From a virus (lineage: Duplodnaviria > Heunggongvirae > Uroviricota > Caudoviricetes), in IMG/VR virus record IMGVR_UViG_3300046522_000748: a stretch of DNA of 64,000 nucleotides. The stretch is one strand, 5' to 3'. Within the stretch, counting starts at the first letter, position 1; the number at the start of each line of letters is the position of its first letter. Under the pieces are notes generated by a model. That model did not search any database, was not told the DNA's origin, and saw only the letters and a program-made list of their open reading frames with translations. A program made the position numbers and the translations under genes. This document shows positions 13,937-61,662 of this stretch, one piece after another.

Positions 13937-14956
13937 TCAGAAGCCGCGATACGTCGTAGCACGCGTCCACAGTCGAACGATGACCGTTTCCAGCACTGAC
14001 GCAGCAGCGAAGCCCAAGCGCGCTTTCAGACCGCGCTTCTTTGGCAATTCGAACTGCACTTGTATCAGATTGTTATCCATCGCTTTTTTTGCCAGATACT
14101 CATCGCTGGTCATCAGCATATCGACAAGTTTCTTTTCTGCGGCCTCGGAGCCGAACCACGATTCGCCCGTGGCAATTTCATCCATCGCCAGCCCAGGTCG
14201 ATATTTGCTGACAAAAGTTTTGAACAGTCCGTGGACAGCATCCACTTCATCCTGAAATTTCTGGCGACCGGCTTCGGTGTTTTCACCCATGGTGGTCAGG
14301 GTGCGCTTGAACTCACCGGCAGTGATCAATTCATAATCGATGCCATGCTTTTTCAGCAGCTTGTTGAAATTGGGCATGGAGGCCACGACGCCGATGGAGC
14401 CCAGGATTGCAAACGGTGCGCTGATCACCTTGTTAGCGATACAGGCCATCATGTAACCACCGCTGGCGGCAACCTTGTCCACACAAATGGTCAGAGGTAC
14501 ACCAGCTTCGCGAATCCGCGCCAGTTGGGAGGCGGCAAGGCCATACCCATGCACTGCGCCACCGGGTGATTCGAGACGGACAACCACTTCATCCTGGTGC
14601 GCTGCATCACTCAAAATGGCGGTGACTTCATTGCGTAGAGACTCCACTGCCGAAGCTTCAATATCGCCATTGAAATCCAAGACATAGACCTTGTGTCTTT
14701 TTTCGTTGAAATCGGCATCCTTGATGGCTTTTTTAGCTGCTTTGCGTCTCGCCTTGCTCATGCAGGCGTGTTGAAGGGTTGTATTCAGCTTGCTGTAGAA
14801 TTCATTGAGGCTGGTGACTTTCAGCTCGCCTTCTTTGCGGCGGCTTTTGCCACGAGACATGGCAAAAATGCCCACCATGGCAGCAAATACCAGCAGGACT
14901 GTGAGGGATTTGGCAAGAAAACCGGCGTAATCGAGGAGTAGCGGCATGGGTTCCAT
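13937..14956 (-). CDS. sohB: S49-family protease SohB
   Basis: N-terminal TM, LESPGG.VHGYGLAASQL, DKVAASGGYMMAC, GSIGVV, AGEFKRTLT. Confidence 0.93.
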   Translation of the reverse strand: MEPMPLLLDYAGFLAKSLTVLLVFAAMVGIFAMSRGKSRRKEGELKVTSLNEFYSKLNTTLQHACMSKARRKAAKKAIKDADFNEKRHKVYVLDFNGDIEASAVESLRNEVTAILSDAAHQDEVVVRLESPGGAVHGYGLAASQLARIREAGVPLTICVDKVAASGGYMMACIANKVISAPFAILGSIGVVASMPNFNKLLKKHGIDYELITAGEFKRTLTTMGENTEAGRQKFQDEVDAVHGLFKTFVSKYRPGLAMDEIATGESWFGSEAAEKKLVDMLMTSDEYLAKKAMDNNLIQVQFELPKKRGLKARLGFAAASVLETVIVRLWTRATTYRGF

Positions 14957-15095
14957 CTTCAAAATTATGGCGCACGACAGGTGTGCCAAGCTTGGTGATT
15001 ATTATGACGGTTGCTGCGCAAATGTCAATATGAATTACCAATTTCTACGGATGAAACCCGCCTAAACAAACAATTATAGTGGAGTAACTGGCTTA

Positions 15096-16743: not shown

Positions 16744-16820
16744 CGCGGGGTGGAGCAGTCTGGTAGCTCGACGGGCTCATAACCCGTAGGTCGTAGGTTC
16801 AAATCCTGCCCCCGCAACCA
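16744..16820 (+). tRNA. initiator tRNA-fMet (CAT)
   Basis: 77 nt, C1:A72 mismatch, three G:C pairs closing the anticodon stem, GTTCAAATC T-loop, encoded CCA. Confidence 0.97.
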
Positions 16821-36272: not shown

Positions 36273-36758
36273 TCAAAAAGGAATGTCGTCGTCGAAACTG
36301 TCAAAATCAGGTGCCGGTTGCGGTGCAGATTGTTGCGGCGCCGACTGCTGCTGTGGTGCGGATTGTTGTGGGCGAGGCGCGGATTGACGCGGGGCGGAAT
36401 TGTCACCTTCAGGGCGACCGCCCAGCAGTTGCAGGGTGCCGTTGATGCTGTCCACCACAATTTCAGTGGTGTAGCGTTTCACGCCGTCTTTTTCCCATTC
36501 GCGGGTTTGCAGCTTGCCTTCCACGTAGATCTGGGAGCCCTTGCGGACGTACTCGCCAGCGATTTCAGCAACTTTGCCGAAAAACGATACGCGGTGCCAT
36601 TCGGTCTTCTCGACCTTCTGGCCACTTTGTTTGTCCGTCCAGGTTTCGCTGGTGGCCAGGGTCAGATTGCAAACGGCATTGCCGTTTGGCATGAAGCGGG
36701 ATTCAGGATCGCCGCCGACGTTACCGACCAGAATTACTTTGTTTACACCGCGTGCCAT
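36273..36758 (-). CDS. ssb: single-stranded DNA-binding protein
   Basis: [13 protein letters not shown]...TEWHRV...FDDDIPF. Confidence 0.97.
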
Positions 36759-36873
36759 GATGTGATTCCTTTGAGTGCTGTATGTGTGGTTTTGGGTGAT
36801 TCGTTGAATATGATTTATTATATATCCACGCCTGTGTTGCGTCAATATAATTTCGAACTATATTTTATGATTG

Positions 36874-41702: not shown

Positions 41703-42353
41703 TTAACCGACTTTGACCGACTGCGCTTTCCGATTGATAAGCACAAACACCATGCAGTTATCGATGGAGAAACTGGTGCTGCCTTCTGTCTCACCAATGA
41801 TGTCGAGTTTACGAGCATTGGCGGGTGTTGGCAGGATGGGATAGGCACCGTGGAATTCTTGATCCTCCAAGAGAAACACGTCTCCAGGCTTAGCTTCGGT
41901 CAGCACCTCGCCGTTGCTCAAAAGCTTGCAGCCTTTAGGGGCATGCAACAGGATCACAATCGACTGTTCGCAGTGTACCGAGGAATTTCGATCATGATGG
42001 TAGCCGACATAATCGCTGATCAAGTAGCTGGCATAGAGCTTCACCAACCCGGAGGGATTGGGCATCATGCTCTTCAGTTGCTCAATCAGCTCCCTGTCTT
42101 TAACCAACTCCGAACAGTCAGTCCATTTGGCCAACATGTCGCGTACGTTATCGCCGTCAGGATGAAATCGGACATCCTCAGTGGCGCCTGACCAGCCATC
42201 AGTAAATCGGGCACTGGCCGACCCTGTGGCGAAATAATTGGTCAGCAGCTTGCTGACCAATTGATCGTCGAGGCTTCCAAGATGAGCAATGCCCTGAGCC
42301 TCGTTCATTGGAACGCCCAGGGCATCTTGAAGGCGGAGCATTTGATACTGCAT
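41703..42353 (-). CDS. putative Fe(II)/2-oxoglutarate-type dioxygenase (DSBH), paralog 1
   Basis: DYVGYHHD...ILL.AP.G...GDVFLLED..FHGAYP. Confidence 0.7.
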   Translation of the reverse strand: MQYQMLRLQDALGVPMNEAQGIAHLGSLDDQLVSKLLTNYFATGSASARFTDGWSGATEDVRFHPDGDNVRDMLAKWTDCSELVKDRELIEQLKSMMPNPSGLVKLYASYLISDYVGYHHDRNSSVHCEQSIVILLHAPKGCKLLSNGEVLTEAKPGDVFLLEDQEFHGAYPILPTPANARKLDIIGETEGSTSFSIDNCMVFVLINRKAQSVKVG

Positions 42354-42354
42354 C

Positions 42355-43008
42355 TCAAGCCTCGTGATAATCGCGACTGATCACAATACAGGACGCGCAA
42401 TTATCACCCACGAAACGATGAAAATCTTCGTCCACGGAATTGCGCAACTTCATGACATCAATGGTTTCGGTCACTTGCATTGGATAGGCTCCGTGTACCT
42501 TGCTGTCATCCAGCAGGTAGGCGCCGCCGACGCTGAGTTGCGTCAGGTGCTGCTCAGTACCGTTGGTCATCATCGTCAGGCCTTTGGGCGCCTCCAGCAG
42601 GATCACAACTGAGCCAGCGAACTTCTCAAAACCCGTATCAGTATGGGCACCGATGTAATCGAGCATCAGAAAGTCATAGGTCAGATGATCAAGCTCTTCA
42701 GCTCGCGGTATGATCGCTTTGAGGCTTTCCTGAATGTCGGGGTCATTCATGTGAGCATCGCCTGGAGCCCACCGATACAGCATGAATCGGCCTAGATTGC
42801 GGCCATTGGGGTGCAGGCCAATATCCAGTTCAGAGGGCTCTGAACCCTGTGAAAAACGCAGCATGGGCATCACTTGCGCCTTGCACAAGGCCAGCAATTT
42901 CTCACGAGCCGCTGGCTCAATGTCGCCCAGTCTGGTGGTGCCTGTTCTGTCGTTGAGTTTAGCCCCGATGATGTCGGGCAGCCCGTTCACAGCGTTGTGA
43001 TCAAACAT
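42355..43008 (-). CDS. putative Fe(II)/2OG-type dioxygenase, paralog 2
   Basis: DYIGAHTD...ILL.APKG...GGAYLLDD...HGAYP; start moved to MFDHN. Confidence 0.7.
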   Translation of the reverse strand: MFDHNAVNGLPDIIGAKLNDRTGTTRLGDIEPAAREKLLALCKAQVMPMLRFSQGSEPSELDIGLHPNGRNLGRFMLYRWAPGDAHMNDPDIQESLKAIIPRAEELDHLTYDFLMLDYIGAHTDTGFEKFAGSVVILLEAPKGLTMMTNGTEQHLTQLSVGGAYLLDDSKVHGAYPMQVTETIDVMKLRNSVDEDFHRFVGDNCASCIVISRDYHEA

Positions 43009-43010
43009 AC

Positions 43011-43460
43011 TCAAGCGGCCTGAATGGTGATGATGTGTGGAGTAAGATCCTGCGCCAAATCTGCTTTGAACAAAATGCTCGACGCTGGCAACATCGCAAG
43101 GCACAGCGCACTGTTAACCACTTGCAGAGACGTTGCAAAATCTTCATCGTTTTCCGGGTAAGGGAGTTTGCCGTCAATAAAGGCGCTATTCCACTCGGCG
43201 TCAGAGCTGTAGCCCCTCTTGCGCTTTGTGAAAGACAGTGGCTCACAGAAAGAAGCATCGTCAGGCCTCAGCAGGTAGCCGTGAACCTCAACCAACAGAA
43301 CAACGGGATCGCTGCCATCTTCTTCAGACGCGCACTCCGCGTAATAGTCGGCGGACTCATTGCAGTCAGTCAAAAACAGGCGCTTGTTAAAAGCCCTGTC
43401 GTGCATGATGCCTTCCAGGCATTTGATGCTGGTGCCATGCATGAGCCGCAGAATGGTCAT
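43011..43460 (-). CDS. small ADP-ribosyltransferase-fold protein
   Basis: LMHGTS....I.......LFLT.....A.YYA......G..PVVL.VEV. Confidence 0.55.
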   Translation of the reverse strand: MTILRLMHGTSIKCLEGIMHDRAFNKRLFLTDCNESADYYAECASEEDGSDPVVLLVEVHGYLLRPDDASFCEPLSFTKRKRGYSSDAEWNSAFIDGKLPYPENDEDFATSLQVVNSALCLAMLPASSILFKADLAQDLTPHIITIQAA

Positions 43461-43513
43461 GAAGAAAAATCCTTATGAAGACTGAGGCTCATGATAACAA
43501 AATACACTGCAAA

Positions 43514-43530
43514 TGTCAATTACAATGACA
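43514..43530 (-). promoter_or_regulatory. TGTCA-N7-TGACA box / promoter of ART-oxygenase operon
   Basis: perfect box; TTGACA-17-TATCAT. Confidence 0.85.
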
Positions 43531-43866
43531 TTATTTGGAATCTTCGGCTTTCTCCTGGGCTTGCAGCCAAACCTGCCATTCGTCATGAGAAAAACCAAGG
43601 GCAGCCACTCGACCTGAGCAGTTTGCCGCGCCCATACACCCGCACATTCCGCCACCGCACCAGCGGGTGCGCCAGTACTCCGGCATTTGTTGCATGACGA
43701 AATCCAGTTGCTCTTGTCGGCTACCGGCAATTTCCAAGTAGCGCATAGGGAGTTTGACTCCCATTGTGACATGGTGCTCTTGAATCATCGCCTCCAGGGC
43801 TTCTCGGCTCTCCATCAAAAACAGCTTCTGATCGCCTTCGGCGCTGGTGGCTTGAAAAATTGGCAT
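43531..43866 (-). CDS. Cys-cluster protein, paralog family C
   Basis: MPIFQ...RWCGGGMCGCMGAAN...LGF...EW..W. Confidence 0.75.
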   Translation of the reverse strand: MPIFQATSAEGDQKLFLMESREALEAMIQEHHVTMGVKLPMRYLEIAGSRQEQLDFVMQQMPEYWRTRWCGGGMCGCMGAANCSGRVAALGFSHDEWQVWLQAQEKAEDSK

Positions 43867-43972
43867 TGCGTCTTCCTTATGACTGGTGGTTCGTTGGGTA
43901 ATAATTAATCTGATATAGCTGTTGAGCCGAAATTACTCTTAGGCTTACAGGAGTAAGCCCAAGGGGTTGAAG

Positions 43973-45388
43973 TCAGCACATGGACAGCGATTCTTCCACC
44001 CGAGGTCGCTTGGCAGCTTCCATCTCGTTGAGAAGATCTTGAGCTTTCACACTTCGTGAGGTGGCATATTGAATATCAAACACTCGACCTTGCAATGAGG
44101 CGCCGAGCAATTGATGGAAGCAGGCAGCATCACCTGTTTTCAGATTTTCAGCGAACGCAACAGGCTTGGCGCGTCGGCCTTCCACCATCTCAATCACCGC
44201 GTTTTCATCGCTGATCATTTTGAACAGCGATTCACTGTTGAGAATAACATTGGACAATGTGCGCGTCATGGCGCCCTCTGCGTGCTTCACCACGACGGTA
44301 TAGCTTCTTTCTGTGCCAATGGTCACACGTATGGCTTTGCTGTCGCGTAGCGTCTCTTCAGATGGGCTGCCGGGGCCTGTGTGCAGACGTTTACCGCTGT
44401 TGTTGTCACGGTAGGTGTCTACCAGATCGTAGGAAATCAACAACTGGTAATCGTCGCCTGGAGTCTGAAATTTCAGGAATTTTCCTGGACTCAAGTCATT
44501 GATGCCTGCGCGTAGCTCAGCATGGTCGGCGGGCTCGAAAATCTCGGAGTTCCTGAAATTGTGCAGCAGGCCTTTTTCGTCTTTGAAGGCGTGTTCCTCA
44601 ATAAAGCCCTTGAGCTTCCACGGATTGTCTCTCAGCTCGAAAAGACCATTAATGCTGGATTCGCCAGCCGCCACACAACGTCCGTGCTGATCCATCAGGT
44701 GTACATCGCAGTGCTGGACGCGGAAATTATCGGTCACTACGGACTTGAGTTGCACTTCGGCATACATGCCGCGATACCCCATTGTTTCGCCTTGTGGAAT
44801 GTTCACGAAACTGGCGCATTCATAACCGAGCCACGGCAGCGGTGCTTGAGCCCTGAGTTTTTTCTGAATGTCGCCCTTGAGGACATATTCCTCGGCATGG
44901 GCAAACGACTCGCACGGATAAGCGATGCCATAATCCTCCTCTTCCGCATCCCATACCACGACGTTAAACACGTCATCGCCAGTACCAGGGTTTTGCTCAT
45001 TCATCTGAGCGTTGCCGACATAGGACTGGATGCCAATCTCAGGATCTTTGCTAAGAAGCATCAGGGTGCCGACTTTGGCTGCCCGCTCGTTCCAGTCAAA
45101 CTGAGGGTCTGCGAACTTGACTGGGTGACTCCATCGGCCCCCGAGGGTGCGGTCAGGTATCAGGAACGAATGGCCATCGGGTGCCATCGGTGCCTCTTCG
45201 ATATTACGAACACGCGATGACATGCGTGCCACAACATCGGGATTGGCGCCAGGGGCGGCTTCAGCGCCCTCCAGCAACCGCTTCATGTCAACAGAAAGGC
45301 CGAAGTGCTGACCGGTCTGCAATGATTTGACGTATTGATCGTCCTGTTCCCAGCGATCACCGAGACCCGTAATGTAAGTCTTGCCCAT
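43973..45388 (-). CDS. multi-domain hypothetical protein with C-terminal tail
   Basis: Start MGKTYI after GAGGA; ends KRPRVEESLSMC. Confidence 0.8.
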   Translation of the reverse strand: MGKTYITGLGDRWEQDDQYVKSLQTGQHFGLSVDMKRLLEGAEAAPGANPDVVARMSSRVRNIEEAPMAPDGHSFLIPDRTLGGRWSHPVKFADPQFDWNERAAKVGTLMLLSKDPEIGIQSYVGNAQMNEQNPGTGDDVFNVVVWDAEEEDYGIAYPCESFAHAEEYVLKGDIQKKLRAQAPLPWLGYECASFVNIPQGETMGYRGMYAEVQLKSVVTDNFRVQHCDVHLMDQHGRCVAAGESSINGLFELRDNPWKLKGFIEEHAFKDEKGLLHNFRNSEIFEPADHAELRAGINDLSPGKFLKFQTPGDDYQLLISYDLVDTYRDNNSGKRLHTGPGSPSEETLRDSKAIRVTIGTERSYTVVVKHAEGAMTRTLSNVILNSESLFKMISDENAVIEMVEGRRAKPVAFAENLKTGDAACFHQLLGASLQGRVFDIQYATSRSVKAQDLLNEMEAAKRPRVEESLSMC

Positions 45389-45461
45389 AGCTAATCCTCT
45401 TTTCATCCATTATAGCAAATTAATAGCCAGCAAATAATAAGGCTATAAGCATGAGCAAATG

Positions 45462-45824
45462 CTATTGATCTTCAGGGTGATCGGTGACCCAGTTTTGCCA
45501 TTGTTTCTTCGTGTAGCCGAGAGCGGTTAGGCCCGCTGTGCTGCGCGCTTTGTCATCCAGGAGACGGCCAGCCTTGTTGGCGGAGCCGGAACAACTGCAC
45601 CGTTTGGACACGCACCAGTGGTTGCGATGCTCTTCTTGCATGTGTTCCATCACCCACTCAAAAATCTGAGCACGGGTGCCTATGAATTCAGCGAAAAAGA
45701 CAATGGGGAATTTTGCGCGAACCTCACCATCAGTTTGTGCAAGGCGCTTATCTAGTACGTCCCTGCTTGCTGCACGATGCAGGAATTTCGTTTTGTTACC
45801 ATAGGAGACTTGAAAAACCGGCAT
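45462..45824 (-). CDS. Cys-cluster protein, paralog family C
   Basis: MPVFQ...HWCVSKRCSCSGSAN...LGY...W..W. Confidence 0.75.
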   Translation of the reverse strand: MPVFQVSYGNKTKFLHRAASRDVLDKRLAQTDGEVRAKFPIVFFAEFIGTRAQIFEWVMEHMQEEHRNHWCVSKRCSCSGSANKAGRLLDDKARSTAGLTALGYTKKQWQNWVTDHPEDQ

Positions 45825-45847
45825 GAGGATTCCTAATGAGAAATGAG

Positions 45848-46174
45848 TTACTGCTGCGCTTGGTTTGCAGAGACCCAGACTTCCCACTCACTTTTTTCAA
45901 AGCCCAGGCGAGCCAGAGCACCAGGGCCATTGGCGCAGCCCATACAGCCGCAGCGCGCAGACTCGCACCAGCGCCCTCTGTAGTTCTCTTGCATGTTCTG
46001 CATGATCCAATCCAGTTGCTCTGCACGAGTACCGCAGACCTCATGAACGACCAAAGGCAGCTTAATCCGTTCATTCCACGCATTATCGGTCAAATACGCC
46101 TCTAGCTCGGCTTGAGAGTCACTCAGAAACAGTCGTTTGACACCGCCAAAGGGTTTTACTTGGAAGATAGGCAT
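45848..46174 (-). CDS. Cys-cluster protein, paralog family C
   Basis: MPIFQ...RWCESARCGCMGCAN...LGF...EW..W. Confidence 0.75.
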   Translation of the reverse strand: MPIFQVKPFGGVKRLFLSDSQAELEAYLTDNAWNERIKLPLVVHEVCGTRAEQLDWIMQNMQENYRGRWCESARCGCMGCANGPGALARLGFEKSEWEVWVSANQAQQ

Positions 46175-46187
46175 GAGGCGCTCGGGA

Positions 46188-46385
46188 TCAGTAGGATTGA
46201 AATTTAAATACAAACAGGCCGTAGTGAAAAATCACCAACAGGAGCCCGCTGATACCTGCTTGTTTCAAGCTTTTCGATTTCGATAGCAGGCTGTGCAGGA
46301 ATACCGCTATGAGCGACAACCAGATCACGGCCAAAATGATGCTTGGCCAGTGATCAAGAAGGTTCGGAATCAACGCATTCGACAT
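46188..46385 (-). CDS. small two-TM protein
   Basis: Two hydrophobic helices. Confidence 0.6.
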   Translation of the reverse strand: MSNALIPNLLDHWPSIILAVIWLSLIAVFLHSLLSKSKSLKQAGISGLLLVIFHYGLFVFKFQSY

Positions 46386-46483
46386 CAAGGGTTTCCATTT
46401 TGACCGAATTAGGATAGCTATTTATTTGGCTATTATAGCAATACCTTACGTTTTTGGCAATCTTAGTGCAACCGAGCCACGCG

Positions 46484-47359
46484 TCACAGATCACTCAAAA
46501 ACAGATCGACTGGGATTCTTTTTTTGTGATTTTTGGCGATGTCATCCAGCAGGTCATCGATTTTTTCGGCATAATTTTCGAATGTTTCGCTGTTCGGAAA
46601 CTGGTGCCGCCGCAAGTCTACAACTTTGCAGCCATTAATCTGAACAGAAAAAACAGGGTCGCCATTTTTCTGACCAAAAAACGTGAACCTTATGCTGTTG
46701 ATCACCAGTGTTTTAAACATGCCTGTGTAGATGTAGGTCTCTACTGGATATTGTGAGACTTCCATCATGAAGTCTCTAAGCTGAGCCCATTCTTCAACAG
46801 AAAACTTGTGATATGGCAGCGTCAATGACTCAATCTGAAAAAATAGATCACTCATTGGCTCGCAATCGGCATTCAGGCGCTCAAGGCTTGCAAGTGCAGC
46901 CAGGGACTCCAATTCTGCCGCTAGACCAAATGGATTTCCGGCCATGAAGTTGTTAACGATGAGTGATGAGAACTCCAGTCGAACTATATCTTTTGAGCAG
47001 CACAATAGGGTTTTGAGTACGGGTAGCCACTGCCCCGAGGTCAACTCAGGGTCTTTTTCATGCAACTTCTCTACCAAATAGTTATGCAGAAGCAAAACAT
47101 GTCCTTGCTCTAGAACTTCGTACTCATCGGCAAGACTCCACTCATATTCATTTCTTTCCGCATCGAGGTTTCGGCAAATAAACTCAATGATGGCATCGTC
47201 TTTGGTATTAGGTTGTTGATTGCCATGCCGATGATTGTGATCAAGCATCAGGATGCATTCGAAATAAACCTCATCGAGTTTTTTGCTGTTAAAGTCCTTC
47301 AGATAACCATATTTATAGTGATCGATGAGGATGCGGATTGGATCTGAAAAGTCACTCAT
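46484..47359 (-). CDS. hypothetical protein (AT-rich)
   Basis: Start MSDFSD after AAGG. Confidence 0.75.
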   Translation of the reverse strand: MSDFSDPIRILIDHYKYGYLKDFNSKKLDEVYFECILMLDHNHRHGNQQPNTKDDAIIEFICRNLDAERNEYEWSLADEYEVLEQGHVLLLHNYLVEKLHEKDPELTSGQWLPVLKTLLCCSKDIVRLEFSSLIVNNFMAGNPFGLAAELESLAALASLERLNADCEPMSDLFFQIESLTLPYHKFSVEEWAQLRDFMMEVSQYPVETYIYTGMFKTLVINSIRFTFFGQKNGDPVFSVQINGCKVVDLRRHQFPNSETFENYAEKIDDLLDDIAKNHKKRIPVDLFLSDL

Positions 47360-47447
47360 GAAAATTACCTTTTTTATTTTTCTAGAAGTATACAAAAAAA
47401 GCGCCATCGGCGCTTTTCTAATAAAACTATTTTAGACTATTCGACTA

Positions 47448-47912
47448 TTAAGCGCCGGTCTTAATGGTTTCAGAGCGCTGGTCTTTCGCCAGCCATTCCG
47501 CCAGTGCCTTTTTGATGTTCTGTACAAGCACGCTGTCAGTTTTGGTGCGTTCATCGGCCAGGGTATTGATCACGTAGCCTGGGATGGGAAACTTTTTGTT
47601 ACCCTCTTGAACCAGATAAACTTTTTGCAGCGATGGGCCACCATAAGTCTGGGAGTACCACAAAACATGATCGAGAACGGCATCCGCTGTGATCGTTGAT
47701 TCCATCGGAACGCTGATGTTTACGGAGGCAACGCCAAGTTCTGTTTGGCCACCAACTACTTTGGCGCTGACTGAAGCAACACTAACGGTCGTTGAAAGCC
47801 CGCTATTGGCTTTATCGGGTGCCTCTTTGATGTCCAGTGGCTTGATTTCAGCACCAATGGCGATGGCTGACAGACTCATGCACAGCGCGACAGCCATAAC
47901 TCGTTTAAACAT
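47448..47912 (-). CDS. exported protein
   Basis: Signal peptide MFKRVMAVALCMSLSAIAIGA. Confidence 0.75.
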   Translation of the reverse strand: MFKRVMAVALCMSLSAIAIGAEIKPLDIKEAPDKANSGLSTTVSVASVSAKVVGGQTELGVASVNISVPMESTITADAVLDHVLWYSQTYGGPSLQKVYLVQEGNKKFPIPGYVINTLADERTKTDSVLVQNIKKALAEWLAKDQRSETIKTGA

Positions 47913-47942
47913 GTTTCATCTTCCTTTTTTCAATTATTAATT

Positions 47943-48647
47943 TCAGTAGTAATAGGTGTACAGTGCAAAACTCATAGCGGTTTCATTGGCATACTGCTCG
48001 ACGCGTTCAACGTCACCAGTAAGGCCATTGATCTCTGACTCTGGCATTGCTCGTGTTGGAAACACCGCATGTTCAGACAAGTCATCCATCAAATACACAC
48101 CGCCGACTTCTGCTTGAGTGATGTGGGTGCCGTTGGTAACAATCTGGCAGCCATAAGGCGCATTCAGGAGAATCGCCAGAACGCCGCGATTTTTTTCTTC
48201 CGCGAGTTTGACGTCATCGTGAAAGCCGACAAAATCACAGATCAGGTAGGTAAGGTCGAGCGATTCGATAGCGTCGCGATTTGGCACCAGATCTTTCAAA
48301 AAGTCTTTGTCAACAAGAGTGCCCATCGAGTCCCATTGCGAGATGCATTGGGTAACCGCATTACCGTTCGGGTGCATCACCTTATCTCTGGCTTCCGCTG
48401 GCCAACCGGCATCGCCGGAGCCTTTTGCAAACCAGCACAACGGAGGCACCATTCTGTTCATGCAGCCATAAAAAAGTCTCAGGCGAATAAGCTCATCGAC
48501 CGAGCCAACATGGCTAATATGGGTATTTGGATCAACCTTCAGATCCAGGAGTGTTCCCAGAAAAAACTCATCGTCATTGGGAAACGGAAGCGCAGCTTCG
48601 TCATAGCTCGGTACGACTTCCTCAACAGCGAATGCAGGCGTGGCCAT
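47943..48647 (-). CDS. putative Fe(II)/2OG-type dioxygenase, paralog 3
   Basis: DFVGFHDD...ILL.APYG...GGVYLMDD...HAVFP. Confidence 0.7.
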   Translation of the reverse strand: MATPAFAVEEVVPSYDEAALPFPNDDEFFLGTLLDLKVDPNTHISHVGSVDELIRLRLFYGCMNRMVPPLCWFAKGSGDAGWPAEARDKVMHPNGNAVTQCISQWDSMGTLVDKDFLKDLVPNRDAIESLDLTYLICDFVGFHDDVKLAEEKNRGVLAILLNAPYGCQIVTNGTHITQAEVGGVYLMDDLSEHAVFPTRAMPESEINGLTGDVERVEQYANETAMSFALYTYYY

Positions 48648-48724
48648 ATATCTCGATCCGGCTTGTCTTTAATTTGGTTATTATATACATAGCATGATTT
48701 TCTGTCAAATTAAGGCAGCTAAAA

Positions 48725-49366
48725 TCAGCATTTTTCCTGCGGGTTAAGCTCGCGAGTTATCAGGAGAAATTTCATGCAATTGGCCCGGCCAAACTTGATG
48801 GCTTTTTCCTCATTCTGCGCAAAAGCATCACGATTATATCGCGTGGTTTTTCGCTCGGGGTACACAGCATGAAACAATGAGTCATCCACCACAAACACAT
48901 CGCCTCGGCGCAACTTTGTCAGGTGCTTTCCATTTGATAGCACCCTACAGCCTTTTGGGGCGTCAAGCAGAATGCACAGTGCGCCAACCTCATACGTGTC
49001 ATGCATATGGGTATCGCGATGCAAACCAACGTAATCACAGATCATTTGACCTGCGCTCAGATTGTCGATGGAGCTGATGCCTGGGATTAGCGGCTCAAGA
49101 AATTCCAGGCTAATTGGCAAGTCGTTGCGGTGCCAACTGACCGCGCACTCATTGCCCAACCCCAGTTTTTCATTGGGATGATGCTCATAATCGGTCGCCT
49201 CTGGCTTCCATCCTTCTGAGCTGGTGAGATGGCAGCCGTCTTGGTCGATGTTCAGGCATATCGCCAGATCCCGCACCACCGCCAAAGGCAGCCGCCCTAC
49301 GTGCGAAAGGCCCAGGGCTTGGTCTGCGGCTAGCCCCAGGCTTTCGCGAAGGTATTGGGTGGTCAT
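48725..49366 (-). CDS. putative Fe(II)/2OG-type dioxygenase, paralog 4
   Basis: DYVGLHRD...ILL.APKG...GDVFVVDD..FHAVYP; start MTTQYL. Confidence 0.7.
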   Translation of the reverse strand: MTTQYLRESLGLAADQALGLSHVGRLPLAVVRDLAICLNIDQDGCHLTSSEGWKPEATDYEHHPNEKLGLGNECAVSWHRNDLPISLEFLEPLIPGISSIDNLSAGQMICDYVGLHRDTHMHDTYEVGALCILLDAPKGCRVLSNGKHLTKLRRGDVFVVDDSLFHAVYPERKTTRYNRDAFAQNEEKAIKFGRANCMKFLLITRELNPQEKC

Positions 49367-49371
49367 ACGTG

Positions 49372-49641
49372 TTAGCGACTCACGAGCCAACCTTCAGTCC
49401 TGTTTTCGTGAAGCCACAGCCAGCCATTAGGAGAAGCTTTGACCTTTGCATAGCATTCAGGGGTCACCGTTACCAGTCTCACGGTCTCGGTACGAGAGAA
49501 CTCGTGCCCTTGGTGACCATTGATTTCAGCGGACTTGGCATCCATCGCCGCTTGGTCGATGGCAAGCAGGTAACCATCGGGCCGATTGCCCCACCGGGCT
49601 TCGTATTCGGTCACTGCGCATGCGTAAACTGTGTTATCCAT
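49372..49641 (-). CDS. hypothetical protein
   Basis: Start MDNTVY after AGGAG. Confidence 0.7.
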   Translation of the reverse strand: MDNTVYACAVTEYEARWGNRPDGYLLAIDQAAMDAKSAEINGHQGHEFSRTETVRLVTVTPECYAKVKASPNGWLWLHENRTEGWLVSR

Positions 49642-50428
49642 TGGCTTTCTCCTGTTGAGTGGTTTTCGCCTTTCGAGTGCGAACGATGGGTTGATCCTCA
49701 TAGCCGAAACCGGCCATGAATTCCCGAAAAAACAGCTTTTGCAGGAACTCCGAGTCTTCGTGACTCAGGCCTTGCGGCTGTTTGCCTTCCTCAAACAATT
49801 GGCGCAGCCGCTGCTGCTCTTCTTCATCGCATTGCAGCTCGAAACTTGGAATGGCCGCAGCCTTGAACCACCAGCGGTCTGCCAACACCAGGGCGCTTTG
49901 ATTCTCGCCCAGAGTGCCCAGCAGCTCGATGCCGCGCCCAAAGGTGCGTGAGCGCACTTCGGTGGTCAGGCAGTAGTGTGCAATGTCTTCCATCGCATGC
50001 GGGTTCTTCTGGAACGAAGAAAAGGTGTCCAGACTCAGGCCAAACAGGCTAACGGGGTCGCCCTTCTGCTCGGGACGCGACAGCCCTTCCATCGCATGCA
50101 GTTTGGTCTTGCGAATCTTCAGTGCGCTGTTGATGTCAGGCACCAGTGAGCCGACCGAGCCATCACCCAGGCTGTGGCACAACACCATTGCAGAAGGGCG
50201 CAGCATAAAGTCCTTGGTTACGACCAGCACGGCCTGACCGGTGCTCTCGTAGTATTGAGAGATCACGACATTCGGGTTTGGCGAGTTGGGATTCATCGAG
50301 GAGCCAACATCAAAATACTTGGGCGAGTAATCGTTGATGTTGTAGCAGAGATCGAGCGAATTGCTGTCAATCCTGGCGACTTGATCGAGGTCGCGGTGAC
50401 GTACCGCCATTAGAATAATGCAACCCAT
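49634..50428 (-). CDS. hypothetical protein
   Basis: Start MGCIIL behind box variant 50485-50501. Confidence 0.75.
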   Translation of the reverse strand: MGCIILMAVRHRDLDQVARIDSNSLDLCYNINDYSPKYFDVGSSMNPNSPNPNVVISQYYESTGQAVLVVTKDFMLRPSAMVLCHSLGDGSVGSLVPDINSALKIRKTKLHAMEGLSRPEQKGDPVSLFGLSLDTFSSFQKNPHAMEDIAHYCLTTEVRSRTFGRGIELLGTLGENQSALVLADRWWFKAAAIPSFELQCDEEEQQRLRQLFEEGKQPQGLSHEDSEFLQKLFFREFMAGFGYEDQPIVRTRKAKTTQQEKANG

Positions 50429-50570
50429 TTGAAGACCCCTGATCAGTTGGTATATACAGGCTATTATACTCGGATCAAGGTGTTTGTCAATCACATTTAC
50501 TCGTGGTGCCGTAGACTGGAAATGTTTGTGCCCTCGGGTTGTCGAGGGCACAGAACAACACGTGGGGGGA

Positions 50571-51125
50571 TTAGTCGAATTCGTAACCCAGCAACTTGAG
50601 TTGCTCATCGCACCATTCACGAGACGGCGCGTATTGGCCGCATTCGTGACCGCACCCCTTCTCGCCTTCGTGCCAACCTTTCCAGTCTTCAAAAGGGTCA
50701 ACGGCGCGAGCAACACGCACTCGCGGGGTTTTTTCGATAAAGGCCACCCGGTTGGCGATAACCTCTGGATCTGAACCTTCGATGCAGCGCATCGAGCAAT
50801 GATCTTCGTTAATCCAAGGCCCCAGGCGTATGCCATCGCCAATAACGGAAGCGCCAGCAACAGCGGTACTTTCACGCACAAACACGCGATAGCTTCGACG
50901 TTCATCGCGAAGCTCGCGCTTGAGCCTTTTGACGATAAGATCATCTTCCAGGTCTTTGAGGTACTGCGCCAATGCCTCGGTAGTACCGGCGTCGATAGCC
51001 TTTTGTCCGGCAGGATCAAGCTTGGCAACTGCGTACCAGTTTCGCTGCACGTTACTGCTGAGCAGGCAACGGCAAGAAAATGATTTGCATACCTTGCAGT
51101 CAAATCCACGTACTTCAAACATCAT
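50571..51125 (-). CDS. hypothetical protein, N-terminal Cys cluster
   Basis: CKVCKSFSCRC; start MMFEV. Confidence 0.7.
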   Translation of the reverse strand: MMFEVRGFDCKVCKSFSCRCLLSSNVQRNWYAVAKLDPAGQKAIDAGTTEALAQYLKDLEDDLIVKRLKRELRDERRSYRVFVRESTAVAGASVIGDGIRLGPWINEDHCSMRCIEGSDPEVIANRVAFIEKTPRVRVARAVDPFEDWKGWHEGEKGCGHECGQYAPSREWCDEQLKLLGYEFD

Positions 51126-51153
51126 GGCGGAATTCTCGCTGGGCAAAAGTGAT

Positions 51154-51336
51154 TTATGCAGCGCTGGCGTCATTCTCAGCAGGTGCCGAGCTGGTCACGC
51201 GCACCGTCTGGGTGATCTTGACGAGGGTTTCCTTGGCCTTCTGCTCGCACTGACGCAGGCTGGTGCCTGTGGCGGTGATTTGGGCTTTAGAGCCGTCTTT
51301 GCGCAGGCCGGTGAAGGAAAAGCTCATGGTGCTCAT
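51154..51336 (-). CDS. small hypothetical protein
   Basis: Behind box variant 51393-51409. Confidence 0.65.
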   Translation of the reverse strand: MSTMSFSFTGLRKDGSKAQITATGTSLRQCEQKAKETLVKITQTVRVTSSAPAENDASAA

Positions 51337-59661: not shown

Positions 59662-61662
59662 TTAGAACTTTACGTTCAGAACACGGTTGATCGAACCTTT
59701 CACACGCAACAGGATTTCATTACGCTTCACGACAGAGAAGCCCAGGCCGCTCAATTGGTTGTCGTTGGCCGCAACTTTCATCTGCGCCGATACCACTTCG
59801 AACACTTTGCGGTGTGGTGTCAGTTCCTCACGCAGGTATTCGTTGTAGAAACCACGAGTGCCTTCTTCGTTTGCGCAGCCCTTGAGCATAAAGAACACAT
59901 GCTCATGACCGTTGGCTTGATCATTCCAGAAGTTTGGCGAACGGGTGATCAAATCAACCGGTGTCCAGTCTTCGGTTTTGATGCCCCACTGCTCGTTAGA
60001 TGCACCACCAGCAGTCATACCTTCGACGGTGATGACTCCCGCCGCGTCAACATTGATGTAGCCAACGGTGACACGTTTGTCATTACCCAGCGCTGTCGGA
60101 TGCGCGAAGCTGTAGATTTTGCCCAACACCTCAACTTCAATATCGAAGCCGACGTTATTGGTGGAGCGCTGACACCAGTTGTGAACCTGAATTTCGTAGC
60201 GGCCTTTTTTGATGTCGCGCTGGCGAGTCCAGAAAATGTTTTCAACCGGGTCAGTCGTGTTGTGCGCGTGACCGGCGTTCATGTCCACATCGAGTTGCGC
60301 ACCGAAATTGCTGCGCTCGCGGAACCAGCAGCGGTTGCGACCATCGCTTACGCTCAGGTCGAGGTCGTCACCGTTACGCCACGACAGGGACACTCGAACA
60401 TCACCGTCAACCTTGCCGCCTGCACGCTTCACCCGCTCACGGATCGAATCGGTAACTTCACCCACATACGACCACGAAAATGCGTTATCCCATTTGAACA
60501 ACGGTTTTGCATCGGTGTGAACCGGGGCTACCAGACTCACGAAGTTGGTGCGGTGTTCGTTCTTCACAAACGCTTCAACCGTGTCCGCTTTCGGCAGCAC
60601 TTTCTGGAGGAAATCTTTGATCGAGATTTCTTCAACGTCGTTCAGAACCGGAACGGCTTTCTTGGTTGGCTTCACCGCGTCGAACGCGCCGCCCAGCAAT
60701 TTCTTTTTCACAGTGCCATCAACGAAAAGCACGTTGTTAACCGAGATGTCTTCGCGCACGGCGTAACGACGTGCCAGCGAATCTTCCAGGCCCAGTTTCT
60801 CGACCAGCTTTTGGGCTTCGTCGATCATCTTCTGGGTGACCAGTGCTTTCGAACGCTTGTAGTTGGTGCCCGAAGTTTTGTCTTCGAATTTCTTCACGGC
60901 AACTTCAAGATCAGTGCCTTCGGTAATATCCGAGAGCAGAGTGCCGATGACGGTGCCGAGAATACGGGTATTTTTCTTGCCGTTTTCCCACAGGAAGGCT
61001 TCACGCTCCTGGTCGGTTGTCAGTTTGGCGTACTGGCGCTTCAGTTTGCGCAGCAGGTCAATCGCCCACTTGTATTCTGGGCCTTTGTACAGCGAGTCCT
61101 GGTCGATCAGTTCGGCAACGATTTCGATTGCGTCGTCGCTGATTTCTGTGATCGAGCGCATCAGGCCTTGAACGTCGTTTTTACGTTCGCCGATGTAGTT
61201 GGTTTCGTTGTTTTTCCACTGGAAAATCACAGGCACTTTGGCGTGGAAGTGATTCCAGATTTCGCCTTTGGTGTTGGTTTGTTCAGCGCCGTAAGCTGGT
61301 TCGCTGACGATGAAGTGCTGTTCGATTGGCAGTGCCTTCACAAACGCCGCCATGGAATCGGCAATCGTCTGGAACAGCGCATCTGCAACAGTCACGTCCC
61401 ACACGGACAGCATTTCGCCGTTTTTCATGTACACGACGGCGCCAATGTTTTTCACGAAATTGCGGCAGCACGAGCAGTCGTATTCGGTACGGGTGCGGAA
61501 AATTGGGTTGGTGCCTTCAGGGAACGACGCAAGGTAATGCGCCCACAGTTCGTCACCGGTTGCACTCACAACGAACACGTTGTCTTTTTTGCCATCGTCT
61601 TTCTGGATGATGGAGTTGAATGCGTTGTGTACCGCTTTACCAAAAACAGAAAAATCGCTCAT
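59662..61662 (-). CDS. large phage-type protein with YfaP/DUF2135-like C-terminal domain
   Basis: N-terminal YDCSCC; RVSLSW...DLDL...LDVDMN...PVENIFW. Confidence 0.8.
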   Translation of the reverse strand: MSDFSVFGKAVHNAFNSIIQKDDGKKDNVFVVSATGDELWAHYLASFPEGTNPIFRTRTEYDCSCCRNFVKNIGAVVYMKNGEMLSVWDVTVADALFQTIADSMAAFVKALPIEQHFIVSEPAYGAEQTNTKGEIWNHFHAKVPVIFQWKNNETNYIGERKNDVQGLMRSITEISDDAIEIVAELIDQDSLYKGPEYKWAIDLLRKLKRQYAKLTTDQEREAFLWENGKKNTRILGTVIGTLLSDITEGTDLEVAVKKFEDKTSGTNYKRSKALVTQKMIDEAQKLVEKLGLEDSLARRYAVREDISVNNVLFVDGTVKKKLLGGAFDAVKPTKKAVPVLNDVEEISIKDFLQKVLPKADTVEAFVKNEHRTNFVSLVAPVHTDAKPLFKWDNAFSWSYVGEVTDSIRERVKRAGGKVDGDVRVSLSWRNGDDLDLSVSDGRNRCWFRERSNFGAQLDVDMNAGHAHNTTDPVENIFWTRQRDIKKGRYEIQVHNWCQRSTNNVGFDIEVEVLGKIYSFAHPTALGNDKRVTVGYINVDAAGVITVEGMTAGGASNEQWGIKTEDWTPVDLITRSPNFWNDQANGHEHVFFMLKGCANEEGTRGFYNEYLREELTPHRKVFEVVSAQMKVAANDNQLSGLGFSVVKRNEILLRVKGSINRVLNVKF

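Follow-up and report, generated by a model that had tools for sequence, protein, structure and literature searches.

The four genes described here lie in IMG/VR record IMGVR_UViG_3300046522_000748, a 64,000-nucleotide stretch of DNA (hereafter the window), and their products belong to a divergent, plasmid-restricted orphan branch of the known double-stranded beta-helix (DSBH) superfamily of non-haem-iron proteins. We name the copies c1 (positions 41703–42353), c2 (42355–43008), c3 (47943–48647) and c4 (48725–49366), and residue numbers below are those of c4. We think it probable, though well short of certain, that all four are soluble, stand-alone non-haem metal enzymes of about 215 residues, nearest to the PF05118 family (Asp/Asn beta-hydroxylase/LpxO) and with a rebuilt cosubstrate pocket. 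The enzyme class itself is ordinary; what is distinctive is the missing cosubstrate clamp, the extreme rarity of the family and a neighbouring gene for a protein with an ADP-ribosyltransferase (ART) fold.

Paralogy, fold and predicted metal site

All four open reading frames (ORFs) are on the minus strand, at exactly the coordinates picked out in an earlier reading of the letters (the sequence-only reading, which did not give the strand), and their ATG starts are the same as in independent gene calls. In order from c1 to c4 they encode 216, 217, 234 and 213 aa, the c3 product having an N-terminal extension, and they form two tandem pairs, with 1 nt between the c2 stop and the c1 start and 77 nt between c4 and c3. 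A family hidden Markov model (HMM) matches c1, c2 and c3 with E-values of 2e-68, 5e-65 and 2e-66 respectively and finds no copy in the window besides these and c4; c2 is identical to the family member P0001. A fifth copy, P0013, lies outside the window on the same 1,136,521-bp JGI metagenome contig as c1, c3 and c4, as seen by exact look-up.

Pairwise BLASTP comparisons of c1–c4 give 29–32% identity over about 190–210 aa with E-values of 1e-22 to 3e-31, and an end-to-end alignment of the four has 29 invariant columns. Judged by sequence this similarity is far above chance and the four are true paralogues. The six motifs from which their relationship had been proposed, HP(N/D), D(Y/F)(V/I)GxHxD, ILLxAPxG, (S/T)NG, G(D/G)x(F/Y)xx(D/E)D and H(G/A)x(Y/F)P, are each found in all four copies.

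A fold prediction, which the sequence-only reading had called for, yields a DSBH of the kind seen in Fe(II)/2-oxoglutarate (2OG) oxygenases. The AlphaFold2 model of c4, built from the 21-sequence family alignment, has eight core strands, with a confidence score (pLDDT) of 93.1 and a predicted template-modelling score (pTM) of 0.91. Foldseek compares this model with the PDB to give 214 matches at E≤1e-3, the best being to Pseudomonas putida prolyl 4-hydroxylase (PPHD), human AspH and cupins. VIA-align, which is independent of Foldseek, was run over 48,161 chains; the top 50 are all DSBH or cupin proteins and nearly all Fe(II)/2OG oxygenases (Z 7.8–10.1), and a second VIA comparison adds ALKBH5 (Z 10.8) and a Burkholderia 2OG oxygenase (Z 10.7). 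AlkB-like, prolyl, aspartyl and small-molecule enzymes are thus tied in structural Z, so that structure alone names no subfamily.

PPHD (PDB 4J25/4IW3) and other small enzymes of its type illustrate how far structural likeness goes. They are similar in size to c4 and consist of a single domain, and PPHD is the best Foldseek match (E 1.9e-5, template-modelling score 0.44–0.49; VIA Z 9.3–9.6). PPHD acts on a protein, EF-Tu. However, identity is 14–16% and there is no sequence-profile signal, and the usual strand-VIII Arg (PMC4543633) is absent from the proteins described here.

The HxD...H triad noted in the sequence-only reading aligns with the iron ligands of PF05118 and is positioned on strands II and VII. 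The family alignment holds 21 sequences, of which 20 are distinct, and column counts are given per 20. Among these, which otherwise share 23–52% identity, His116, Asp118 and His166 are invariant (20/20), as are Leu134, Ala136, Pro137, Gly139, Gly155, Asp162 and Pro170. His116 and Asp118 are at the end of the strand formed by residues 113–116 (II) and His166 is at the start of that formed by residues 166–169 (VII), which suggests, by homology and topology, that the three side chains converge on a metal, probably Fe(II). Three cysteines are semi-conserved: Cys110 (12 of 20), beside the point where strand I ends, and Cys140 (18 of 20) and Cys197 (14 of 20), beside the points where strands IV and VIII begin. 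Together they might provide a redox site or a second site for metal close to the active centre.

Kinship with PF05118 and the cosubstrate pocket

All of the sequence-profile signal that we see is to PF05118, and sequence, unlike structure, therefore picks a subfamily. Five of the 21 members match PF05118 weakly; only the distant member P0016 passes its gathering threshold of 22.6 bits, with 26.7 bits. We compared the family by hhalign with 17 genuine PF05118 proteins from Pseudomonadales genomes, and obtained a probability of 85.7% (E 5.5e-6) in an alignment that places His116-x-Asp118 on the H-R-D of those proteins and His166 on the distal His, that of FDETxxH. The equivalent residues of human AspH, His679 and His725, are metal ligands located on strands II and VII (PMC6817910). 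By profile comparison the nearest sequence relatives are accordingly the PF05118 proteins, and not AlkB or TET/JBP; the link is real but remote.

The likeness comprises the DSBH core and a shared framework, HxD ... G ... P-x-G-C ... (D/N)G ... G(D/E)xVxFD(D/E)xxxH, and the best matches of the c4 model among the predicted viral structures of BFVD are PF05118-annotated proteins, labelled as Asp/Asn/Pro hydroxylases. There are also clear differences. AspH has two His ligands only, whereas the full HxD is kept here; there is neither a TPR domain nor a membrane anchor; and, according to the c4 model and the alignment, strand VII is separated from strand VIII by some 30 extra residues that form two helices.

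The largest difference concerns the cosubstrate. Binding of 2OG normally involves a Lys or Arg for the C5 carboxylate together with an alcohol side chain (PMC4543633), and in AspH these roles fall to Arg735 and Ser668, while His690 and Arg688 are found at the C1 side (PMC6817910). In LpxO-like proteins the strand-III R-x-H is retained, as is an Arg about 10 residues past the distal His. In the family described here other residues replace Arg688 and His690 of strand III as well as Arg735 of strand VIII, and by hhalign these positions fall in columns that are hydrophobic (I/L/M) or non-conserved; an Arg ten residues past the distal His is present in c4 only. Just before and at the start of strand VIII stands Asn196-Cys197-Met198 (Asn in 13, Cys in 14 and Met in 18 of 20). 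It had been suggested from c1–c4 that NCM, NCA or TAM takes the place of the canonical Arg at the beginning of the last DSBH strand; alignment and model agree with this for the four copies, and the replacement is family-wide. The Arg said to be kept close to the end of that strand in three copies is likewise there, c3 being the exception. As the AspH-type contacts are replaced, 2OG, if it is used at all, must be held differently.

A plausible arrangement is offered by the JmjC/FIH oxygenases, which have no strand-VIII Arg and hold the C5 carboxylate of 2OG with a strand-IV Lys and a Thr or Tyr. The two best basic columns of the family are 138, which immediately precedes strand IV, and 205, where strand VIII ends; Lys138 is found in 11/20, and Ser or Thr at 144, also at or on strand IV, in 13/20. 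Ten members have Lys, Arg or His at both 138 and 205, among them c1, c2 and c4 (Lys138 with Arg205), six have a basic residue at neither, among them P0002 and c3 (Tyr at both), and four are mixed, a pairing that may be inflated by sequence kinship. Judging from these columns, Lys138, Ser/Thr144 and Arg205 could together act as a clamp of the JmjC kind in about half of the family, and are candidate 2OG holders in c1, c2 and c4, but not in c3. The analogy has its limits, as Lys138 is confined to those 11 sequences and JmjC proteins are not prominent in the fold searches (YcfD, 4LIT, Z 8.6).

Proposed function and alternatives

The reading that we favour is that c1–c4 are most likely O2-activating enzymes that hydroxylate a substrate or oxidise it in some other way. 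The proteins are acidic: 20 of the 21 aligned sequences, including c1–c4, have a pI of 4.3–5.9 (4.4–5.9 for c1–c4) and a net charge of -6 to -23. This acidity, together with the kinship to PF05118, makes nucleic acids less likely as targets than protein side chains or small molecules are. As the paralogues are old lines (see below), they would be expected to serve different substrates or roles.

Several observations weigh against this proposal. None of c1–c4 reaches the PF05118 threshold, c4 scoring 15.8 bits (E 0.013) and c1–c3 giving no match. Structural Z in the model comparisons does not separate protein hydroxylases from AlkB-type enzymes, and the convergence of the three ligands is read from homology and from their strand positions in the model. 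There is no column in which Lys and Arg together exceed 11/20, a departure from the rule stated for 2OG oxygenases (PMC4543633), and for some members, or for all of them, the name oxygenase may not be right. An all-versus-all comparison of neighbourhoods of about 20 kb at nine loci finds no gene family consistently beside the DSBH genes, and so no partner that would point to a substrate.

The loss of all three AspH-type contacts, with no basic residue conserved and with hydrophobic (I/L/M) positions lining the pocket, would also suit metal-dependent cupins that do not use 2OG, either oxidases or oxygenases with a metal-chelating substrate (as in IPNS, ACC oxidase and HppE) or non-redox isomerases or decarboxylases using Mn, Ni or Zn. 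There are weak Cupin_2 matches in two of the 21 members (E 0.056–0.21) and many cupins in the Foldseek list. Classical cupins have two His and a Glu in motif 1 and a His in motif 2, and this His/His/Glu/His two-motif signature is not present here; the ligand pattern HxD...H and its spacing are instead those of 2OG oxygenases, and a JmjC-like clamp, which roughly half of the members could form, also speaks for 2OG. We consider a 2OG-independent cupin activity doubtful, although it deserves some weight. A considerably less likely possibility is that the proteins are catalytically dead binding proteins, for example acidic decoys or inhibitors of host defence or of DNA-binding proteins built on a DSBH scaffold. 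Their strong acidity, the lost clamp, the setting among small accessory genes and the anti-CRISPR-like genes of related elements would fit such a role. Pseudo-enzymes normally lose metal-ligand residues, however, and here the triad is invariant at 23–52% identity, as are the active-site-proximal Asp162, Pro170 and Gly155. Pseudo-enzymes have been noted in the DSBH 2OG superfamily (PMC4543633).

The sequence-only reading had proposed DNA or RNA bases or host proteins as targets, for example with epigenetic marks removed or added against host defence. In the nucleic-acid form of this idea c1–c4 would be AlkB/ALKBH- or TET/JBP-type oxidases that remove or write base marks on plasmid or host DNA or RNA against restriction or other defence. 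ALKBH5, ALKBH6/7, AlkB and ALKBH1 are indeed among the best structural matches (Z 9.6–10.8), and ALKBH5 (7WKV) and Escherichia coli AlkB (3BKZ), which have the same triad topology, score highest in VIA (Z 10.0–10.8 over about 150 residues); the neighbourhoods add an SSB gene 5 kb from the DSBH genes, an ART-fold protein resembling KptA/Tpt1, which acts on nucleic-acid ends, and, for the member P0017, a unit shared with an Ogg-HhH glycosylase-like gene beside a RecA-dependent nuclease gene. However, the AlkB-type scores are within 1 unit of those of oxygenases of the prolyl, aspartyl and small-molecule types, neither Pfam nor NCBIfam gives a match to AlkB or TET families, strand VIII lacks the Arg pair of AlkB-type enzymes, and the Ogg neighbour belongs to one distant member only. 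The proteins are moreover acidic rather than basic, a poor fit to nucleic-acid binding of the AlkB or TET kind, and we regard this alternative as unlikely.

A bolder extension of the oxygenase reading takes the family as a lineage without the Arg/Lys 2OG clamp that uses another cosubstrate, a hydrophobic 2-oxoacid or the substrate itself, and that, on million-base conjugative elements, would make up with a co-transcribed minimal ART a module expressed early to modify the host or counter its defence, each paralogue being aimed at a different host protein. In this full form it is improbable. More generally, an anti-defence or establishment role is a reasonable guess by neighbourhood association, nothing more. 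If host proteins were modified during plasmid establishment, oxidative protein modification would join mobile-element counter-defence beside ADP-ribosylation by AcrIF11, and use of another cosubstrate would extend the known chemistry of DSBH proteins. Failing both, the family simply adds an uncharacterised branch to an enzyme class that is very large and frequently expanded on mobile elements. Most genes of giant Pseudomonas-type plasmids have no assigned function, and for one recurrent multi-copy family among them we can now offer a fold, a putative metal site and a nearest relative. We also point to something biochemically odd, in that the iron triad is invariant and yet the standard 2OG clamp is missing.

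Family distribution, carrier element and neighbouring genes

An exhaustive HMMER search of 1.84 billion protein cluster representatives finds homologues in 17 clusters only. Sources labelled as Pseudomonas are P. luteola, P. syringae pv. actinidiae (a 938-kb contig), P. aeruginosa (903 kb) and P. nitroreducens (450 kb); the others are unlabelled metagenome contigs, some of 0.8–1.1 Mb and several short assemblies of about 1–20 kb. Family sources with long or named contigs are thus 0.45–1.1 Mb in length or labelled as Pseudomonas, and elements commonly carry 2–5 copies. No homologue of the family is found in phage and plasmid collections by megablast of the region or tblastn of c4, in IMG/VR scanned with c4, or in PHROGs, NCBIfam and PADLOC scans, and PDB sequence searches with the family profiles or P0016 return no meaningful match. 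The ESM Atlas has unnamed clusters only, the nearest named families being PF05118 and PF13640. A 164-aa ORF elsewhere (L019:14381–14881, minus strand) matches the family HMM weakly (E 6e-4) and may be a still more distant relative.

The maximum-likelihood tree shows deep paralogue branching. It pairs c1 with P0003, c3 with P0002 and c4 with P0004 at support of 97–100, and these nearest relatives, all from outside the window, share 49%, 51% and 52% identity with their partners respectively; c2 has no supported partner outside the window in this tree. The paralogues are therefore old, separately kept lines and not recent duplicates, which implies differing substrates or roles. The description of a diverged, expanded family, made from the window's letters, is borne out by both the search and the tree.

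The phage setting implied by the sequence-only reading does not hold. The carrier appears to be a giant plasmid-like, conjugative-type soil element of 1.14 Mb. We had considered a jumbo phage origin, suggested by a head-maturation-protease-like protein (13937–14989, minus strand) and a 666-aa phrog_1735 protein (59662–61662, minus strand), and dropped it in view of the size of the contig (1,136,521 bp). The phrog_1735 protein is 58% identical to a protein of Pseudomonas phage pf16 and has matches in 550 phage records. A tRNA-Met (CAT) gene is at 16744–16820 on the plus strand.

The four DSBH genes sit in a one-directional block of small accessory genes. Plasmid leading regions collect SSB, anti-defence and toxin-antitoxin genes on one strand (PMC11541004), and the window looks similar to such a region. 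Its SSB gene (36273–36845, minus strand; Pfam E 3e-38) is downstream of the DSBH genes in the same orientation, and the product is 84% identical to an SSB encoded 3 kb from P0007 on the P. syringae contig. In the neighbourhoods of other family members we find AcrVA2-like, ParB, Fic, AbiEii, MazE and SSB genes. A 477-aa gene of the window and a 479-aa gene following P0006, considered as a shared neighbour, proved to be unrelated.

Each gene unit would be expressed from its own sigma-70-like promoter. A perfect consensus match, TTGACA-17-TATAAT, occupies 48680–48708 on the minus strand in the c4/c3 gap, and a second lies at 50463–50490 (minus strand), upstream of a gene of about 261 codons (o261) that precedes o109 and c4. 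Upstream of the o149-c2-c1 unit, at 43491–43530 on the minus strand, the promoter-like TTGACA-17-TATCAT overlaps a perfect TGTCA-N7-TGACA palindrome. This palindrome, counted with at most one mismatch, occurs 25 times in the window against 2.8 expected (for example at 2166, 20041, 39852, 43514 and 59102) and often overlaps a -35 box, as it does here. A GAGG ribosome-binding site is 7 nt 5' of the c1 start.

The first gene of that unit, o149 (43011–43460, minus strand; 149 aa), abuts c2, which starts 2 nt past its stop, with c1 as the last gene. Its AlphaFold2 model (pLDDT 70.6) finds in VIA essentially all ART folds, including KptA (9ld3, Z 8.7), TreX (7.1), Arr (6.7), Rhs ART toxins and PARPs, and with moderate confidence in the model we take o149 to have a minimal ART fold. 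Invariant residues are HGTS, YY and EPLSF. The o149 family is tiny (two clusters and a P. luteola homologue), and its homologues are near DSBH family members both in L017, a 6.6-kb soil contig, and in the P. luteola contig (L002). The latter has a different ART (Pfam AcrIF11_ADP_ribosyl) directly upstream of P0009, with no detectable sequence similarity to o149; AcrIF11, which phages and plasmids carry, is an ADP-ribosyltransferase that works as an anti-CRISPR (bioRxiv 10.1101/2024.08.26.609590).

Contig L017 preserves a compact synteny of o261, o109, a c4-like gene, a c3-like gene, an o154-like gene, a small Cys-rich protein and an o149-like gene. In the window o109 (49372–49701, minus strand) is a small gene whose stop is 5 nt before the c4 start, and it is 54% identical to L017:753–1025, which also precedes a c4-like gene; o261 has homologues at L017:1–735 and L014:6120–6905. 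Between the DSBH pairs are Cys-rich paralogues of about 110–120 aa, all on the minus strand (43531–43866, 45462–45824 and 45848–46174), which start with MP(I/V)FQ, have an invariant W-C-x4-C-x-C-x-G-x-A-N-x2-G and no Pfam match. We considered these as peptide substrates and set the idea aside, as beyond the window we find them just in the closely related contig L017 (one copy, L017:3179–3595).

The P0017 unit (L015:8026–11265 and L016, the P. aeruginosa 903-kb contig) consists of the Ogg-HhH glycosylase-like gene, a gene for a 378-aa protein, the DSBH gene and a gene for a 183-aa protein, and is adjoined by the RecA-dependent nuclease gene. Within the window a 494-aa ORF (49634–51118, minus strand) is probably not one gene. 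Homologues (L017:1–735 and L014:6120–6905) cover only its 3' 260 or so codons, the perfect promoter at 50463–50490 lies inside it, and an overlapping 200-aa frame, 50571–51173, shows 69% identity to a gene of the 938-kb P. syringae contig.

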